Positions 10,602 through 45,988 of a stretch of 64,000 nt of DNA are shown in pieces. Where the stretch lies: NCBI RefSeq assembly GCF_036971445.1, contig NC_091478.1, positions 102,982,001 through 103,046,000 on the forward strand, written 5' to 3'. How positions within the stretch are numbered: position 1 is the first letter of the stretch; each line of letters starts with the position of its first letter. Below the pieces are notes generated by a model. The model did no database searches and was not told the DNA's origin. It saw only the letters and a program-made list of their open reading frames with translations. The position numbers were made by a program, and so were the translations under genes. Source of the stretch: Narcine bancroftii (taxonomy: Eukaryota).

Positions 10602-10790
10602 TAGTGGTTCTCAACCCTCCCCTCCGTTCCCCCCCCCCCCCCCACCCCACTCACACACTACTATGGCTTAGGATGGCGTGGGTGCTCTGTGGTTAGTAAG
10701 GGATTGCTTAAGAGGTTAAAGCTACAACCTACAGAATTTTGTGATTTTCTTCAAGAGGTATATGAGTGGAAAAAAAGTTGTGAACCACTG
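10602..10790. mobile_element. hAT (Charlie-like) MITE without cargo
   Basis: TIRs tagtggttctcaacc / gttgtgaaccactg; imperfect 8-bp TSD aattaaaa/aataaaaa. Confidence 0.75.
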
Positions 10791-10884: not shown

Positions 10885-11470
10885 AAGGTTCCAGGATTCC
10901 TTTTATTGTCATGTAATAATGCATTAAAAAGACAACATACATGATATACTTCAACTTTTGCCTGCTGTAAGGTAGATTAAGATTCACCATTAGTGTCACC
11001 TGGTGCCCCTTATGGTATGAGAGAAAGAGAAGCAAGAGGATCTCTTCAGTCACTGAATATCCATGGATTTGTCTCCAGCTCTCCCATCATCGCTACTACC
11101 GCAGACTCCTGTTCAATCATTTCGGCAGCCAAAGCTCCACATCTAAACCTCCAACGATGAGGAAGCCTTCAGCACCTGAGATCCTTTCGGAGCCTTTATT
11201 GCCCTCAGCACCCTCTCGAATGAATTCAGGACCTGGGTTCCCATTGACCTGATGTCCAGCAGCCCACAACCTGTGCAGATTCCCTGACTCCAAGTTCCAA
11301 GCAGCCCGCAAGGCCCCCCTCCCCAACTGTAAGTCACCCAGCCTCTAAGCCCCTCGTTGGTCCGCTGCCGTGGTCACTGTCCTCCAAGTTTTCTTCTCAA
11401 CAGGGTTTATTCTCCCCATTTCTGGTGCCCTGTGCTACACTGCTCCTCCCCGGAGTCTGCAACCCTTATC
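10885..11470 (-). mobile_element. GC-rich non-autonomous interspersed repeat (same family as 8965-9670)
   Basis: Reverse-complement similarity to ~9280-9670; 3' tail ...catgacaataaaaggaatcc. Confidence 0.6.
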
Positions 11471-12131
11471 ATCCCTATTGAGTCTCCATTAAAGTGTCCT
11501 GACCTAAAACATCGTCTGACCATTTCAACCCAATGGATGCATGGTGAGGTGAATGAACTATTGATGTATCCAGCCGGCCAACCAAAAATAACAGAGAGAA
11601 GATAGATGATTAGCATTTCAACTCATCTGAAAGCTAGTCATATTTGTTCTTTTAAAGTATCATCTTATTTGGAGAGAAAACATTGATGTGCTGAACACGA
11701 ACAACAAATAAAGATAACTGGATTTATATTGCAGATAAAGATCAACCATCATGATCCCTTTTGGTTGCAGCATCATTTTAAAAAGACATAATATGAAGTA
11801 ATTATCTGATTCACCATTTGCAGAACCTTCCCCCTTTGCCTTTTAACTGATGACATTTATAGAACGGTTCATAATTTTCTTAATGAAGTAATGTGTGCAG
11901 GGCTGAGGTTTGGAAACACAAAAGTAATTTCACATTTCACTGACACAGTAGGTCACAAGAGTTTGCAGGGTTTAATAATCTTTAGTTTTCAAATCTTGTA
12001 GCAATCACATTAGGATAAATGATGAAAGTTGGAATAATTTCCTCCCGCAGAACAACAGCTTCTGTGAGTCTCCAGTATACTTCGAGACCAATTCTCAGTC
12101 CAACCCGGGGTGGGTGGCAGGGGGGAGAAAA

Positions 12132-12206
12132 TCACTTAGAAGACTCTTCAATTCGCTTTTGCATCCTTGCAGCGTGCTCCCTGTTTTTGGCCCTCTTGGA
12201 TTTTTG
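12132..12206 (-). CDS. CMC2: CMC2 (COX assembly twin-CX9C protein), last coding exon
   Basis: Acceptor ctctcaaccttcag; QKSKRAKNREHAARMQKRIEESSK*, phase 0; resembles the vertebrate CMC2 C-terminus. Confidence 0.9.
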   Translation of the reverse strand, partial: QKSKRAKNREHAARMQKRIEESSK

Positions 12207-12491
12207 CTGAAGGTTGAGAGAAAACAAGAACAGATGTTAGAAAATGGAACCGAGCTGCTCAGTCCAATGGGTCACTGGTTTTATTTAGTGAGGAGCTGGA
12301 ACGCACCGAGCAGGAAAGGTCTCCAGGTCCCCAACTTAATAACTAATCTCCAACAGCACACTCAGAAAGGGATCAAAAGTGGTCACGATTTCCATCATAT
12401 ATTTTACTATTTATAATTTTATTTTTACCTTCATTTTCACTGGTGGTGCATTATCTTAATTTAATTTTATATTTAAATTTTAACTTTAGAC

Positions 12492-12788
12492 CGGTGGTTC
12501 TCAACCTTTTACCCCCCCCTCCCCCACCTTAAGTAATCCCTGAGGTCCTGAGTTCATTCGAGAGGGTGCTGAGGGCAATAAGGGCTCCGAAAGGGTCTCA
12601 GGTGCTGAAGGCTTCCTGATTGTTGGAGGTTATAGTGCACTATTTGTACTCACTTCTTTATGGCACTGCATGGTGCTCTGGTTGGTAAGGGATTACTTAA
12701 GGAGGTAAAACTACAACCACGGGCTCTACAGAATTTTGTGATTTACTTAAGATGGTGAGTGTAAAAAAAAGCAAGTTGAGAACCACTG
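12492..12788. mobile_element. hAT MITE carrying captured local sequences
   Basis: TIRs cggtggttctcaacc / gttgagaaccactg; TSD ctttagac/cttttgac; interior includes copies of 11146-11234 (inverted) and 15391-15429 (direct). Confidence 0.8.
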
Positions 12789-13320
12789 CTTTTGACTTGC
12801 AGTACAATAACAGGCCCTTCAAGCCCGCGAGCTCGTGCCACCCAAATATGCTAATAGACCCTGGTACATTTTGAAGAGTTGAGGGGGGGGGAAGAAATCA
12901 GAGCGCACCCAGAGGAAACACAGAGAGAATGTACAAACTCCTCACAGACAGTCATATGATTGAGTTAATGTACAGTTTACAAATGCATGAAATTGCTGGC
13001 TGCAGCTACACATGTACGTAGAACACACGTGAATGGGCAGCACCACAACAACTGAGATTCAAATCCAGCGCTGTGACCCAGTAATATCTGATGTGTAGAG
13101 ATCAGCTGAGGCTTTTTGGGTTTTTTTTATATAGTCCTGTTCTAAGATGGTGATAATATGTATGTTTGCACGATGATGTTGTCACAAAACACTGAATTTC
13201 ATGACTTGTTCGTGACAATAAATTCTCATTCTGGCTTTTAATAGCAAAAGGCTCACTTTCAACCAGAGAGCACTAAACCACAGCACAAGCCCTTCCACCC
13301 TCAATGTTGTGCTGACTGAC

Positions 13321-13530
13321 CATAATGTTTGGGACAAAGACACCTTTTTCCTTTATTTGCCCCTGTGCTCCAGTTTTGTAATCAAACAATTCACATGTAA
13401 TTAAAGTACACGTTCCAGACTTTATTCAAGGTTATTTGTAGATATTTTTGTTTGACTATGTAGAAATTACAGCACATTTTATACATTGTCCCCTCATTCC
13501 AGGACACCATAATGTTCAGGACGTTTGGGC
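13321..13530. mobile_element. Tc1-like transposon terminal fragment
   Basis: Matches 44228-44443 (cataatgtttggga.aaagacac...), the end of the Tc1 element that starts at 44218. Confidence 0.7.
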
Positions 13531-14643
13531 ACCACCCCTGGGAAGGCATTCCAGGCACCCACAATCCCTGTGTAAAAAGCTTACCCCTGATGTCTCTGCT
13601 AAATTTTCCTCCCGTCACTTTGTACAGATCTCCTGCACTAGGAAAAAGGTGCTGGCTGTCTACCTTATCTGTGCCTCTCTTAATCATGTAGACCTCTATT
13701 AAGTTCTCTCTCAGCCTTCTTTGTTCCAAAGAGAAAAGTCCTCGCTCTGCTAACCTTGCCTCATGAGACTTATTTTCCAATTAAGAACCAGCAATGTGGT
13801 CAAAATACAATTGCCACACTGAACTGGTTCAGCAAGTCCCCCAGTTCAAAGGGGTAATTAGGAGCGTACAGTGGTTGCTGGCATAGCCAGCAAAAGGCCA
13901 AGTCTTGAGAAGGAAGAACCACCAGACCAAAAACAGAGTTTAACCTTCAGATTCTTGGAGTCCCAATCGCACAGAACACTGATCACGGGTTCACAGTTCA
14001 CCAACCCAGCTGTGCAGTCGGGATGATGAAAAGAGATGAACCTCAGTCATTCAGTGAGATGCTACAGCACAAGGAACGACCAATGTGGCTACCAGTACAT
14101 CCAAGACAGATCCAGCTGTCGGATGGGAAACAAGGAGGGAAGATGTTTTGAAGAAAGAAGCGAGTTTTTTATGAAAGTTTTGTACTCCACCATATCACAG
14201 AACAAAGTCCAGAAACTTTAAAATCATCCTACCTCTGCACTTAAGCAAAGTCTCATCTCTCGGTCCACATCATTACATTTCCCCAGGAATTTCATGAAAC
14301 TATGCTGTTGGGAGAGACGGGAGAGTTGATGAGCTACAAAGTTAGAACTTTGTTAACAAACTTGCTTTGTCAAGATTATTGTAATGAGTTGATGGGACAG
14401 GATATTAGAAATAAAATAATTGTCTCGTTCATCACCCACAGGGGATTAAGAGACAAGTTAAAATCTCACTATGGCCCTGAGAGCTTTTAAATTCAGTTAA
14501 TTAAATGAATCTAGTAAAAGCAATGACTATCATGAAACTACCAGAGTGTTTTTGTCAACAGCCAAATTACTTTACTAAAGCTTTACAGGGAGGGCGAACT
14601 GCCCCTGTGGTCGATCCTGAGCCTAAGCAACATGCAAAAGTGC
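13531..14643. repeat. Segmental duplication, copy A (source; includes the second CMC2 coding exon and a CR1 fragment at ~13531-13780)
   Basis: Reverse complement of 43068-44172. The ORF track shows near-identical peptides on opposite strands (14036-14221 vs 43482-43667). Confidence 0.95.
14233..14304 (-). CDS. CMC2: CMC2 second coding exon
   Basis: ccaacag|HSFMKFLGKCNDVDREMRLCLSAE|gtagga; 72 nt; contains the second CX9C motif. Confidence 0.95.
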
Positions 14644-14954
14644 GAGCAATGTTCCGGACCTGCTGATGCTGCATGACCTGCTGAGATTCTCCAGCTCTTC
14701 TGTGTGTTACACTCGACACCAGCATCTTTCTCTCCTGAGCCAAAGCTTTGTGATGGACTCTATCCTAATCTGAAATGGCCCAATCATCCTACAGTTTGAG
14801 GACAATGAGAGATGGGGACTAAATATACTCTGTGGGTGTCTATGACACCTACATCAATCAAAAGGAGACAGCAATGAAGGCAACACAAGTTAAGAATTGT
14901 TATACAGCCGCACTATGGAGTTCAAATACTTATAAATAGTCAGTTGTGCTGCAT

Positions 14955-15200
14955 GGTACAGCACCTAATAGCCTGAATATGCCTGAGATTGTCTGATCTC
15001 AGAAGCTCGTCAAGCTCAGGTCTGGTCAGTACTCGGAGGGGAGACCGCCTGAGAACATCAGGTACTGTAGGTTTCTGTGAGGGGTGCTGGACAAAAGTGG
15101 TGACTCTCTGTCTGCTTTATGGGAGACAAAGTTAAAGAATTTCAATTATGTTACATTCTAAATGTAGTATCACGTGACAATAATGGAACCTTTACCTTTT
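14955..15200 (+). mobile_element. 5S rRNA-derived SINE (SINE3-type), copy 2, in a CMC2 intron
   Basis: cctgaatatgcctgagattgtctgatctcagaagct...ggtctggtcagtactcggaggggagaccgcctgagaacatcaggtactgtaggttt aligns to 5S rRNA (~14955-15074), followed by a non-5S tail. Confidence 0.85.
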
Positions 15201-15414
15201 TTAACTTTCTTTTCCTAAATCTAAATGTGTTTAGATTCCCCCACATTACCAGAGTTTTGTAGAAAATCCAATGGATGCTGAAACCGGATGTGACTGGCAG
15301 AAAGATATAGTGGGCTGATGTGCACGGTGAGCAATATTATGCACTACACTACATCTTGTCTGAAACAGGAGCACCACGGGTGTCCAGAGATTATAGTGCA
15401 CTATTTGTACTCAC

Positions 15415-15495
15415 TTCTTTATGGCACTGTTGGAGGCGTTGAATTAGAAGGTTGCACTCCTGCGTATGCAGATGTGGTGATAGGTCGGGGTGCAT
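15415..15495 (-). CDS. CMC2: CMC2 first coding exon (exon begins at 15544 with 5' UTR)
   Basis: [27 protein letters not shown]|gtgagt; canonical CMC2 N-terminus with the first CX9C motif. Confidence 0.97.
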
Positions 15496-17437
15496 CCTCG
15501 TTTTCCCGTTGTAAGCCAAGTGATATCAGGAATAAATCTTGCGTCTGAAAATCAGCAAATGACCATCGTTCTCAAAAAAAGCACTCACTCTACATCACCA
15601 TGAATGAACTCCATTTGCAAGTGGAACTGGGTGAGCTGGTGTTAGAAGAGCAAGAATGCTCTTGTTGAGGGTACAATGGCATAACAAGCTATATTACTCA
15701 ACATCATCCAGGAGTCTTGACTAAACTCCTGGATGAACCAGTTGACCACCCCCATCCCAACTAAGATGGGGAGTATAAATCATCTATTAAATATCAAGAA
15801 TGGCCAGGAATCTAACGAGTTGTCACACAAACCAATTCTGGTTCATTGGTCTCCTTTCAGGCTAAAAATCTGTGTCCTTTTCCCGTAAGACCGCAGACCC
15901 ACATGGCTGATCTTTAAAGCCAAGCACTCACATGCTACCTCAGGAAGGCAGCCAACACCATAAAGGACCCCCATCACCCTGATCACAACCTCTATTCACT
16001 GTTCCCTTTGGCCAAAAGGGACAGAAGCCTCAAGACGAGCACCTCTGCTTTGTTTCCAACAGCTGACAGGCTTTTGAACCTCCCCTTGCTACACTGATCA
16101 CAAACGACTCTGACACGACACAAAGACCCGTCTGGCTTAACCCAGCGTCCTTTTAATTTAATTTACCATAATTTTAATTTAGATGTACAGCACAGTGATG
16201 GTAACACCACTTTTTTTTCTTGCACTCTGGTAACTGTGAATATTATCCTTTGTATGGATTTTTTTCTTTAATTTGATGTTTACTATTATAATTGCTTTTT
16301 TTTACAAGAAAAAAATAAGATTTGTACAAGGTATAGACTCATTAGTAATGGGTGGGCAGAATGATGTATTTCGAACTCTTCATTAATTAACTCTTCTTCA
16401 TTAATTGGGTGGGATGGTTAGTGTACCCCTTGGTACAGAACCAGCAACCTGGGTTTGAATCCCACGCTGTCTGTAAGGGGTTCGTAATTCTCCTTGTGTC
16501 TGCATGGGTTTCCTCCGGTTGCTCCAATATCCTCCCACCCTTTAAAAAAAAGTACAGGGGTTGTCGGTTAATTGGTGTATTTGGCGGGCATGGGCCTGTG
16601 GGCTGGAAGGGCCTGTCACCGTGCTGTACATCAATTAAAATGATGGTGAATTAAATTAAAAGGACTTTGGGTGAAGCCAGCTCTGAGAGGAGATGTGTGA
16701 CGAAAACCCAGTGAAGAAGAGGAGGTGAAGCATGAACGAGCCGGAGAAGGGCTGAAAGAAGTGGGAGGTGGGGAGAAACTGAGAGGGAACAGCATCCAGA
16801 TTTTAGTCACCACCATCTCTGCTCCCTGGAGGAGGTTTTCCAGTCCAGGACACCTGAGGTGTCCATCTTCAGAAAACATGGCTTCATCTCTCCTGGCATT
16901 AACTCCGCCCTCATCTGCATCTCCCCTTCGGGAGAGAACAGCCAGATTCAGATCTGATCTGGCAAACCGGGTGGGTGAAGCTCAGGCAGACCTGCAAGGG
17001 TCCCCGTGGAGTGGACTGGGAAGAGCAAAGAGCAGGTTGGAAGTGGACCAGGCAGTGGTGGCCTGGAATGCATTGCTGGAGGCTGGTCCAATGGGGAACA
17101 CTGAAAAGACTCATGGATGGAGGGGAAATAGAGGTTCGTGGGCTGAGAGGGAGGTGTGGAGGAGGTCCTCACCATATTGTGGGCCGAAGAGCCTGTACTG
17201 CTCTCTGGATTGTGTCCCATCCTGAGCACATGCTCAGCATTTTCTGCTTTTATTCCTAAGCAATTTGCATTCGCGACGTCTGAAAAATCGAGTGAGAGGG
17301 TTTTGATGGAGATGACCTGGATCTCCGGAGTTCAGGGTCACAGAGAAGGCTTTAATGTCTGCACCTATATTTACAATTCGCCCCCTTCGTTGATGCAGGA
17401 TGAGACGATGATCTGCAATGTCACCCACGCCACTTAC

Positions 17438-43067: not shown

Positions 43068-44172
43068 GCACTTTTTCATGTTGCTTAGGCTCAGGATCGA
43101 CCACAGGGGCAGTTCGCCCTCCCTGTAAAGCTTTAGTAAAGTAATTTGGCTGTTGACAAAAACACCTTGGTAGTTTTATGATAGTCATTGCTTTTACTAG
43201 ATTCATTTATAATTAACTGAATTTAAAAGCTCTCATGGCTTTAGTGAGATTTTAACTTGTCTCTTAATCCCCTGTGAGTGATGAATGAGACAATTATTTT
43301 ATTTCTAATATCCTGTCCCATCAACTCATTACAATAATCTTGACAAAGCAAGTTTGTTAATGAAGTGCTAACTTTGTAACTCACCAACTCTCCAACAGCA
43401 TAGTTTAATGAAATTCCTGGAGAAAAGTAATGATGTGGACCGAGAGATGAGACTTTGCTTAAGTGCAGAGGTAGGATGATTTTAAAGTTTCTGGACTTTG
43501 TTCTGTGATATGGTGGAGTACAAAACTTTCATAAAAAACTCACTTCTTTCTTCAAAACATCTTCCCTCCTTGTTTCCCACCCGACAGCTGGATCTGTCTT
43601 GGATGTACTGGTAGCCACATTGGTCGTTCCTTGTGCTGTAGCATCTCACTGAATGACTGAGGTTCATCTCTTTTCATCATCCCGACTGCACAGCTGGGTT
43701 GGTGAACTGTGAACCCGTGATCAGTGTTCTGTGCGATTGGGACTCCAAGAATCTGAAGGTTAAACTCTGTTTTTGGTCTGGTGGTTCTTCCTTCTCAAGA
43801 CTTGGCCTTTGCTGGCTATGCCAGCAACCACTGTACGCTCCTAATTACCCCTTTGAACTGGGGGACTTGCTGAACCATTTCAGTGTGGCAATTGTATTTT
43901 GACCACATTGCTGGTTCTGGATTGGAAAATAAGTCTCATGAGGCAAGGTTAGCAGAGCGAGGACTTTTCTCTTTGGAACAAAGAAGGATGAGAGAGAACT
44001 TAATAGAGGTCTACATGATTAAGAGAGGCACAGATAAGGTAGACAGCCAGCACCTTTTTCCTAGCGCAGGAGATCTGAACAAAGTGACGGGAAGAAAGTT
44101 TAGCGGAGACATCAGGGGTAAGCTTTTTGCACAGGGATTGTGGATACCTAGAATGCCTTCCCAGGAGTGGTG
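43068..44172. repeat. Segmental duplication, copy B (inverted copy of 13531-14643)
   Basis: Continuous reverse-complement match with scattered substitutions and small indels. Confidence 0.95.
43399..43470 (+). pseudogene. CMC2: Duplicated CMC2 exon (pseudo-exon)
   Basis: ccaacag|HSLMKFLEKSNDVDREMRLCLSAE|gtagga; three substitutions vs 14233-14304, all non-synonymous, including a CX9C Cys to Ser change. Confidence 0.9.
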
Positions 44173-44217
44173 GTTGAGACTGAAACATTTGGGTTTAATT
44201 TTTGGTAGGAGTATATA

Positions 44218-45988
44218 CAGTGCCCTGCATAATGTTTGGGAGAAAGACACTCTTTTCCTTTATTTGTCCCTGTGCTCCACAGTTTTGAATTTGTAATCAA
44301 ACAATTCACATGTAATTGAAGTGCACATTCCAGATTTTATTCAAGGTTATTTGTCGACGTTTTGGTTTGACGATGTAGAAATTACAGCACTTTTTATACA
44401 TAGTCCCCTCATTTCAGGACACCTTAATGTTTGGGACATTTGGCTTCACAGGTGTTTGTGAGAACTCAGGTCTATTTAATTGCTTCATTGGTGCAGGTTT
44501 AAGAGAGCTCGACTGACTTCTAAGCTTGTGATCACCTTTGGAGTCTGTAGTTGCCATTTTTCAACATAAGGACCAGAGTTGTGCCAGTGATAGTCAAAGA
44601 AGCTATTATGAGGCTGAAAAACAAGAATAAAACAGTCAGAGACATCTATTAAACCTTAGGGTTTTCAATATCAACAGTTTGAAACACTATTAAGAAGAAA
44701 TAGTGTACTGGTGCGCTCAGGAATTGCAAAGGGACTGGTAATTCCTAGGAAGACCTCCACTGTTGATGACAGAAGAATTCTCATCATAATGAAGAAAAGT
44801 CCATAAACTTTTGTCTGATAGATCAGAAACACTCTTCAAGAGGCAGGTGTGGATATGTCAATGACAACTGTCTGCAGAAGACTTCATTCATAGCAAAGGT
44901 GGCATGCTTTGAATCTTGGACAGTTCCATAATGCCTCCACACTTTGCTCTTGCCATCACTCTAATACAGGTTAATCTTGGTCTTGTTAGAAACAGAATTT
45001 ACCTTTAAAGAAATTGCTCGAGACAAAAATTGAGAACAAAGAACATTTATTATAACCACAATGCAAAGTTGGGTGCTTCCCCTTACCTTGGGAATACACA
45101 CATACACTGGGGCTCACCCAACTTTTACACAGTCAATTTCAGAATCAGAATACCCTCCCCCTTACATTCTTCTGCCCCCTGGATGGGTTTGGCATAGGCA
45201 ATCCTTCCTGCCTACGTGCAGTTTCAGTAGACTTGGAGGACCAGGGGATATCCTGTCCGTGTCCCTTCATGTTATTGTCCTTATTCACACCTTCCTGATT
45301 CTCGGGGCTACAGTCTCTTGGTATGCAGAGTTGGCTCATCCTGTCTAGGGTTGGCTAATTTAATATGTATAAATCTGTGTAAGGTTAGCTAATTAGATAT
45401 GTAGGATTTGGTACTTCTGTCCAGGGCTAGGAGACCCTTATCTGATCCAGACTACCTCAACTTCCTACATTCTATTGTTCCTTACCACTCCTTATCTTAG
45501 TCTTATGGTGGCTCTTGTCACAAAGACTAGAAGATTCTTATGTTAATCGTGCTGACTCTGCTTTCCTGCATCCTAATCCCCAAGCTCATCCTGCTTGTAC
45601 TGGTTACAGCCATTAACTGATGTATGAATTTTAGTTTCCTTCATGTTCATAATTTTAGATCAGTTTTCCCATCTCTCACAGTCTCATCTGTCCACAGGAC
45701 CTTTATCCAAAATTCTGCAGGCTCTTTTAAATACATCTTGGCAAACTGTAATCTGGCCAATCCTGTCTGGCTATCTAGTGGTTTGCATCTTGCAGTGTAA
45801 CCTCTGTACTTTTTTCATGAAGTCTTCTGCAGACAGTGGTCATTGGCATATTCACACCTGCCTCCTGGAGAGTGTTTCTGATCTGTCGGAGAGGCATTTG
45901 GGATTTTTCTTCATTACGATGAGAATTCTTCTCTCATCAGCAGTGGAGATCTTCTTTGGAATACCAGTTCCCTTATAATTACTGAGCT
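44218..45988. mobile_element. Rearranged Tc1-like transposon (plus-strand 5' part 44218-44888; minus-strand part ~44895-45988 interrupted by an LTR)
   Basis: TA-CAGTGCCC terminus; transposase remnants RLKNKNKTVRDI...RKTSTVDDRRILIIMKK (plus) and VLWTDETKIN (minus). Confidence 0.8.
44984..45680 (-). mobile_element. Solo LTR, copy 2
   Basis: TG...CA termini, 4-bp TSD GTCT; reverse complement of 18201-18899. Confidence 0.9.

Follow-up and report, generated by a model that had tools for sequence, protein, structure and literature searches.

Nearby DNA in the hairpin tip of a hAT-type MITE of Narcine bancroftii: a probable scar of template-switching break repair

The window analysed here, a 64,000-nucleotide stretch of the Narcine bancroftii genome (contig NC_091478.1, positions 102,982,001 to 103,046,000), contains a MITE whose interior is a patchwork of sequences that also occur on either side of it. 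The question raised by this locus is whether the patchwork represents gene-fragment capture by an element of the Pack type, as proposed in a first-pass annotation made from the sequence alone, or was left behind by the repair of a break in an element that was already resident. The answer depends on the identity of the donors, on the age and copy number of the chimera, and on the behaviour of the MITE family to which the element belongs.

The element, its family and its host gene

The MITE (12492-12788) sits in intron 2 of a minus-strand gene of the Cmc1 family in a genome of 3.3 Gb, and its parts, together with the donors and the host exons, are listed in Table 1. It is short, non-coding, bounded by TIRs and flanked by an 8-bp TSD, and its family reaches a high copy number, with 6,922 exact genome-wide matches for the 18-mer 12524-12541 of the outer left arm. 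Its predicted membership of the hAT group rests on the TSD and the TIRs. Copies of the family mostly measure 115-185 bp, with 14-bp TIRs and 8-bp TSDs; one or two TSD mismatches are seen in several free-standing copies, and more in clustered ones. The TIRs of the present copy are near-intact, as originally described, the right one being unchanged and the left one carrying a single change at position 2.

The family is one that we take to be of the hAT-Charlie/MER20 type, with which it shares a short TIR beginning CAGTGG, the 8-bp TSD, thousands of copies and, often, a central TCTAG-like core, and from which it differs in being a near-complete foldback palindrome often found in nested or paired units. 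The palindrome is near-perfect, and a natural long-form copy folds into one hairpin at -66 kcal/mol, whereas the folding of the present, interrupted element is unremarkable (z -2.0). An Rfam search of the element returned no match. An 18-bp inverted match between 12524-12541 and 12688-12705, considered as a possible third captured piece, proved to be the family's own arm. Copies of the family often stand in pairs with a common spacer of about 100 bp or are nested into their own tip, and one copy carries another repeat in both arms, in opposite orientations and at matching sites, as if one arm had been copied to the other.

Table 1. Coordinates, within the window, of the element, its insert, the donors and the host gene
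Feature	Position	Strand	Remarks
Left TSD, 8 bp	12484-12491	+	7/8 identical to 12789-12796
Left TIR, C-rich tract and outer left arm	12492-12541	+	family-own sequence by family alignment, not captured
Single base at junction 1	12542	+	filler or copy-specific change; unlike donor A and the natural family copy compared
Piece A	12543-12631	-	inverted copy of 11146-11234; 5/89 mismatches
9-mer	12621-12629	+	equals 3' flank of donor B (15428-15436)
Piece B	12630-12668	+	exact direct copy of 15391-15429; 15 coding and 24 intron bases
Possible in-frame cryptic exon, 24 nt	12654-12677	-	MITE-derived AG and copied donor
Right arm, restarting just beyond the hairpin tip	12669-12701	+
Second, older insertion	12710-12749	+	3'-end fragment of an abundant retroposon-like repeat
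Remainder of right arm and right TIR	12750-12788	+
Right TSD, 8 bp	12789-12796	+
Sister MITE	10602-10790	+	different TSD; carries the same private insertion in its right arm; inner part of left arm missing
Donor A	11146-11234	+	segment of an old, dispersed repeat (about 10885-11465) in the host gene 3' UTR
Donor B (15391-15429) with flanking 9-mer (15428-15436)	15391-15436	+	exon 1/intron 1 junction
Host gene, first coding exon	15415-15545	-	ATG at 15495; spliced contig, Pfam
Host gene, second coding exon, 72 nt	14233-14304	-	corresponds to the 72 letters separating the two pieces listed for the spliced contig
Host gene, last exon with 3' UTR	10948-12206	-	as far as the contig reaches

Two exons of the host gene, which is presumably CMC2, match the Pfam family PF08583 (Cmc1). 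Three exons are fixed by a spliced contig, since it joins the first coding exon, 72 letters and the last exon; this contig was among the longest sequences of a single run that is probably RNA, none of the listed runs being recorded as RNA. Pfam and the spliced contig together bear out the earlier view that the 39-mer within donor B spans an exon/intron junction of the gene.

The two-piece insert, its donors and its junctions

The insert measures 126 bp and stands in place of the hairpin tip between the left and the right arm. Both of its pieces had been recognised in the first-pass annotation, and the coordinates, the five mismatches of piece A, the exactness of piece B and the overlap of the two through TT are all reproduced, with E-values within the window of 7e-35 and 2e-15 for pieces A and B, respectively. 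Repeat-derived sequence accounts for 89 of the 126 bp, and coding sequence for only 15 bp.

The donors flank the element at distances of 1,309 bp on the left (donor A) and about 2,720 bp on the right (donor B). The repeat from which donor A is a slice is dispersed, with 817 candidates in a genome search, of which the best 40 were scored; piece A belongs to this old repeat and is therefore not unique host sequence. The proposed nearby origin of the interior thus holds in that the local copies are the sources, and has to be amended in that one of them lies in dispersed repeat DNA. Piece A differs from the local donor at five positions and from each of 29 other copies of the repeat at 20 or more, and deletions of 2 and 3 bases are common to piece A and the local donor and occur in none of those 29 copies; these private deletions and the difference counts rule out a distant copy as the source. 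At three of the five mismatches the base in the donor, and not that in piece A, deviates from the majority of the repeat family. The intronic 24-mer of piece B occurs at exactly two places genome-wide with up to two mismatches allowed, which disposes of the possibility, named at the outset as one that would count against the proposal, that the 39-mer is a dispersed repeat. Both local donors are unambiguous.

At junction 1, CCC is present on both sides, in a near-match offset by 2 bases, next to the single base at 12542; at junction 2, the shared TT lies inside a GAG.TT match of five bases in six; at junction 3, G or TG is common to both sides. The insert has no poly-A tail. The 9-mer that precedes piece B does recur at the 3' edge of donor B, as the first reading had it, with the qualification that eight of its nine bases are shared with donor A and that the ninth, one of the five mismatches of piece A, is the base seen in the flank of donor B and not the one in donor A. 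Piece B ends exactly where the match to this 9-mer starts at donor B. The 9-mer lies beyond the donor and therefore is not a simple primer for piece B. A flank match of this kind is expected by chance at 0.07% (at least 9 bases) to 0.4% (at least 8 bases) per flank tested, and since several flanks could be tested, the support that it gives is modest.

The left arm ends at 12541 and the right arm resumes at 12669; the insert thus occupies the place of the loop and of the inner part of the left arm. The loss would amount to about 30 bp if this copy had the long palindromic form, as one diagnostic base and the tip of the sister MITE suggest. Among the matches listed, no piece from two other organisms covers the element, and as no outgroup with an uninterrupted element was seen, the pre-break sequence, the size of the deletion and its timing rest on comparison with the family.

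Piece B carries an intact 5' splice site in the sense of the host gene, identical to the donor of exon 1, and a MITE-derived AG lies 24 bases upstream of it. The candidate micro-exon between the two is skipped by the one spliced contig listed, and a minor isoform that uses it is possible.

Age and copy number of the chimera and fragility of the hairpin tip

The insert differs from its donors at 5 of 126 positions (4%; 95% interval 1.3-9%), the element from its sister at 11 of 104 (10.6%), and the family shows a median divergence of 16.8% over 171 pairs of 19 complete copies, which are a mix of sub-forms. These divergences point to a capture later than the insertion of the element, and the insert is likely to be younger than the split from the sister as well. 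The two pieces show no detectable difference in age (5 of 89 versus 0 of 39 differences, p 0.32), which fits a single event. A genome-wide check for further copies of the chimera, as suggested in the first-pass annotation, found none in the best 40 of 817 and the best 40 of 757 candidates, among 7 pattern matches or in a genome-wide 24-mer scan; the locus therefore falls outside the definition of multicopy Pack-TIRs and Pack-MULEs, which asks for at least two copies with different TSDs. With no further copy found and an insert younger than the family, the patchwork probably formed when the element was already resident, and the element has probably stayed in place since then.

The sister MITE carries no two-piece patchwork, as had been noted, and is nevertheless not a plain reference copy, having lost part of its left arm and sharing with the element the private insertion in the right arm. 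This insertion is surrounded by a duplicated 7-mer (12695-12701 and 12745-12751). Its 5' junction is found at only two places genome-wide, the element and the sister; the zero further matches speak against a subfamily bearing the insertion elsewhere. A scan with the 3' junction gave six matches, namely the element itself, one ordinary MITE, three unrelated sites and one place where this repeat has inserted independently, and at greater length, next to a MITE arm. The shared insertion combined with different TSDs is likely to reflect an older local hop or gene conversion. The retroposon-like repeat, which we take to resemble Penelope-like elements and in which no Rfam hammerhead was found at 12 loci, has inserted independently into or beside other copies of this MITE, and this suggests that it has a target preference for the MITE.

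The state of other family members bears on the cause of the break. The first 100 arm matches listed, taken in positional order, were classed as 92 distinct places, seven of the remainder adjoining a counted place and one being the second arm of a counted copy. The opposite arm was missing in 7 of the 12 copies that carry the long-form letter (a script gave 6, and one call was corrected on inspection), in 1 of 49 short-form copies and in 5 of the other 31. The long and short forms thus differ (Fisher p 1e-4 to 1e-5), in a test that was post hoc and with a letter that is an imperfect marker, as one of the 12 copies is short and one has an inner deletion. Each of the seven half-elements stops at most a few bases from the tip and gives way to unrelated sequence, and the surrounding DNA examined contains no other half; their seven downstream sequences do not match one another, which excludes that they are the ends of one longer element. 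These observations support a fragile palindrome tip, and breakage of the foldback palindrome at its tip, a feature that the first-pass annotation does not mention, is the likely cause of the break. Capture at the tip appears to be rare, since locally templated filler was found neither in the 7 broken or truncated copies checked nor in the 6 distinct long-interior places inspected, from the 95 found; the 50 long-interior matches listed of these 95 are, by eye, mostly nested or paired family units.

The repair event, its alternatives and related systems

We conclude, with a probability of about 0.8, that the insert is the scar of one germline double-strand break that was repaired by template switching in a resident MITE. 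Multi-template repair inside a DNA transposon, the core of the first-pass proposal, is upheld by the two local donors, the microhomology or filler at the junctions and the lost centre. The absence of a second chimera from the searches and the divergence of 4% against 17% make a break-repair scar likely in preference to Pack-type mobilisation. From the donors, their orientations, the lost centre and the single copy, which are observed directly, four steps of repair may be inferred. The palindrome would have formed a hairpin or cruciform and broken near its tip. With the 3' UTR repeat 1.3 kb to the left as its first template, the left end would then have primed and produced an inverted copy, the orientation expected when an end copies from its own side. 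By way of the microhomology of five bases in six, the new end would next have switched to the exon 1/intron 1 junction, which lies 2.7 kb to the right, and made a direct copy there. Finally, it would have been rejoined to the right arm through the 1-2 shared bases, with loss of about 30 bp of inner arm and loop. The match of 8-9 bp beyond donor B may have served as an anchor for the strand and halted copying at that point. Transposase would not be required, and the element would have made no detectable movement since. The orientations of the pieces suit this one-ended path, as would one in two of all orientation pairs, and a two-ended path suits them as well. The kilobase distances of the donors are a better fit to SDSA-like switching than to classical polymerase theta joining.

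A two-ended form of SDSA, in which the left end copied donor A and the right end donor B before the strands annealed at TT, with the 9-mer a product of chance, departs from this course only in the last two steps and is a real, if tentative, contender. PMC2671141 explains chimeric duplications by this model, and an 8-mer match contributed by an abundant repeat has a chance of 0.4% per flank, with several flanks testable; it leaves unexplained why piece B ends exactly at the 8-9 bp match, and the match of five bases in six at junction 2 suits priming. Classical polymerase theta end joining as the origin of the whole insert is unlikely. Theta-dependent insertions (PMC5068794) have in common with this insert its short microhomologies, the repeated priming and an inverted copy, yet here the donors lie kilobases away, the tracts are 89 and 39 bp long, piece B is free of errors, and at three of the five mismatches of piece A it is the donor and not the copy that has left the family majority; the first-pass annotation had allowed for this polymerase beside SDSA, but with tracts of such length and donors at 1.3 and 2.7 kb its suggestion is a poor fit. 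That piece B was copied from the unspliced RNA of the host gene is very improbable: both donors lie inside the transcription unit and a transcript copy would give the direct orientation of piece B, but piece A is inverted and cannot come from that RNA, piece B holds 24 intron bases with no poly-A or TSD, and DNA templates are enough to account for it.

Capture of the Pack type, either before transposition or in the course of it, with later mobilisation of the chimera, is hardly tenable. In its favour, the TIRs and the TSD are near-intact, and the private insertion shared with the sister despite different TSDs implies that a composite of this family likely moved or was converted locally once; against it, no second copy was found among the candidates scored, the sister has no patchwork, both donors flank the present site, and the age of the insert is below that of the family and likely below that of the sister split. 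Pack-type gene capture therefore overstates the case for an element that appears to be much older than a mostly repeat-derived insert with so little coding sequence. An assembly chimera is the least credible of the explanations. No spanning record for junctions 2 and 3 is among those listed, whereas five differences between piece A and its donor, three of them changes on the side of the donor, are not expected from a mis-join, the arms and TSD are in register on either side, and a 1,603-base short-read contig (10983-12585) crosses junction 1 with one differing letter, reaching 43 letters into the short side and possibly deriving from the assembly's own sample.

The closest known counterparts are the proximal repair-mediated duplications of the human genome, of which 824 are described in Pace 2009 (PMC2671141), including 20 two-donor chimeras; they are insertions into transposons from donors up to 5 kb away, in which exons, UTRs and splice sites have been copied, and in the five chimeras with both donors near, these lie 289-3,432 bp apart. 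The present locus shares with them an insertion of at least 50 bp that interrupts a transposon, donors 50 bp to 5 kb away and unambiguous, microhomology, filler or deletion at the joints, the lack of poly-A and the use of two donors. It differs from the both-near cases in that its donors flank the break on either side with about 4.2 kb between them, and from the set as a whole in that one donor is repeat DNA, which the Pace filter would likely drop, that the break site is a palindrome tip and that no empty orthologue was seen. Tan 2021 (PMC8277862) states that single-copy Pack-TIRs arise by gap filling without transposition, that hAT elements host 208 of 370 of them and that the pipeline asks for one parental copy covering 80-120% of an interior of more than 100 bp. 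The likeness extends to the hAT host, the retention of both ends (termini of at least 10 bp), a donor within 5 kb, an internal break and an exonic piece, and the divergences point here, too, to a capture after the element had stopped moving; unlike those cases, the non-transposon interior comprises 39 bp instead of more than 100 bp, and two donors of 89 and 39 bp take the place of one parental copy. Multicopy Pack-TIRs and Pack-MULEs have in common with the element host DNA between TIRs with a TSD, and they differ from it in its single copy, its donors in cis and an insert younger than the family. For polymerase theta, priming lies no more than 10 bp from the break in about 85% of inserts, most inserts are shorter than 25 bp, and errors number about 1 in 30 bases (PMC5068794); repeated priming, snap-back and direct copies and tiny microhomology are shared, and the far longer template distance and tracts and the accurate copying are not. 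The finding thus likely matches a known repair-mediated duplication and works like a single-copy Pack-TIR, and is not a mobile gene-capture element.

As such, the locus is a worked example of a known process, the duplication of nearby DNA into old transposons by break repair, which is mostly inconsequential. A broader reading, which we hold to be improbable, is that the fully palindromic MITE acts as a dispersed germline break trap and that the scar records anchored loop-back copying. In such a course, the new strand would pair by 8-9 bases just past donor B, its unpaired tip would prime about 40 bases behind this anchor, and synthesis would halt at the anchor; this would fix the length of piece B and plant a working splice donor able to add an in-frame micro-exon. 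If an anchor in the new strand sets the ends of copies, the result would be a recognisable repair signature that could be tested in insertion catalogues, and long-form MITEs that are often one-armed from the tip would report palindrome fragility genome-wide in a vertebrate germline.

Short local near-duplicates are common in the DNA compared, with 14 pairs, of which two are the present insert and some are young repeats, in 461,920 bp that were partly chosen around MITEs. Upstream of the window lie a 101-bp near-exact duplicate with copies about 1.3 kb apart and an inverted one of 60 bp about 2.4 kb apart, and downstream an exact 86-bp duplicate 280 bases apart; these local duplicates within 264 kb around the window are candidates for further repair scars. 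Elsewhere in the window, BLAST pieces starting at 13321 and 13530 in the region 13321-14643 match 43068-44443 at 87-96%, the two regions likely being young copies of one repeat. A 5S rRNA-like match at 14954-15073, which at 35.3 of 38 bits falls just below the Rfam threshold, is likely the head of a high-copy SINE-like repeat. The segment 20001-22000, with 73% G+C and a strong G skew, is probably a simple or tandem repeat.
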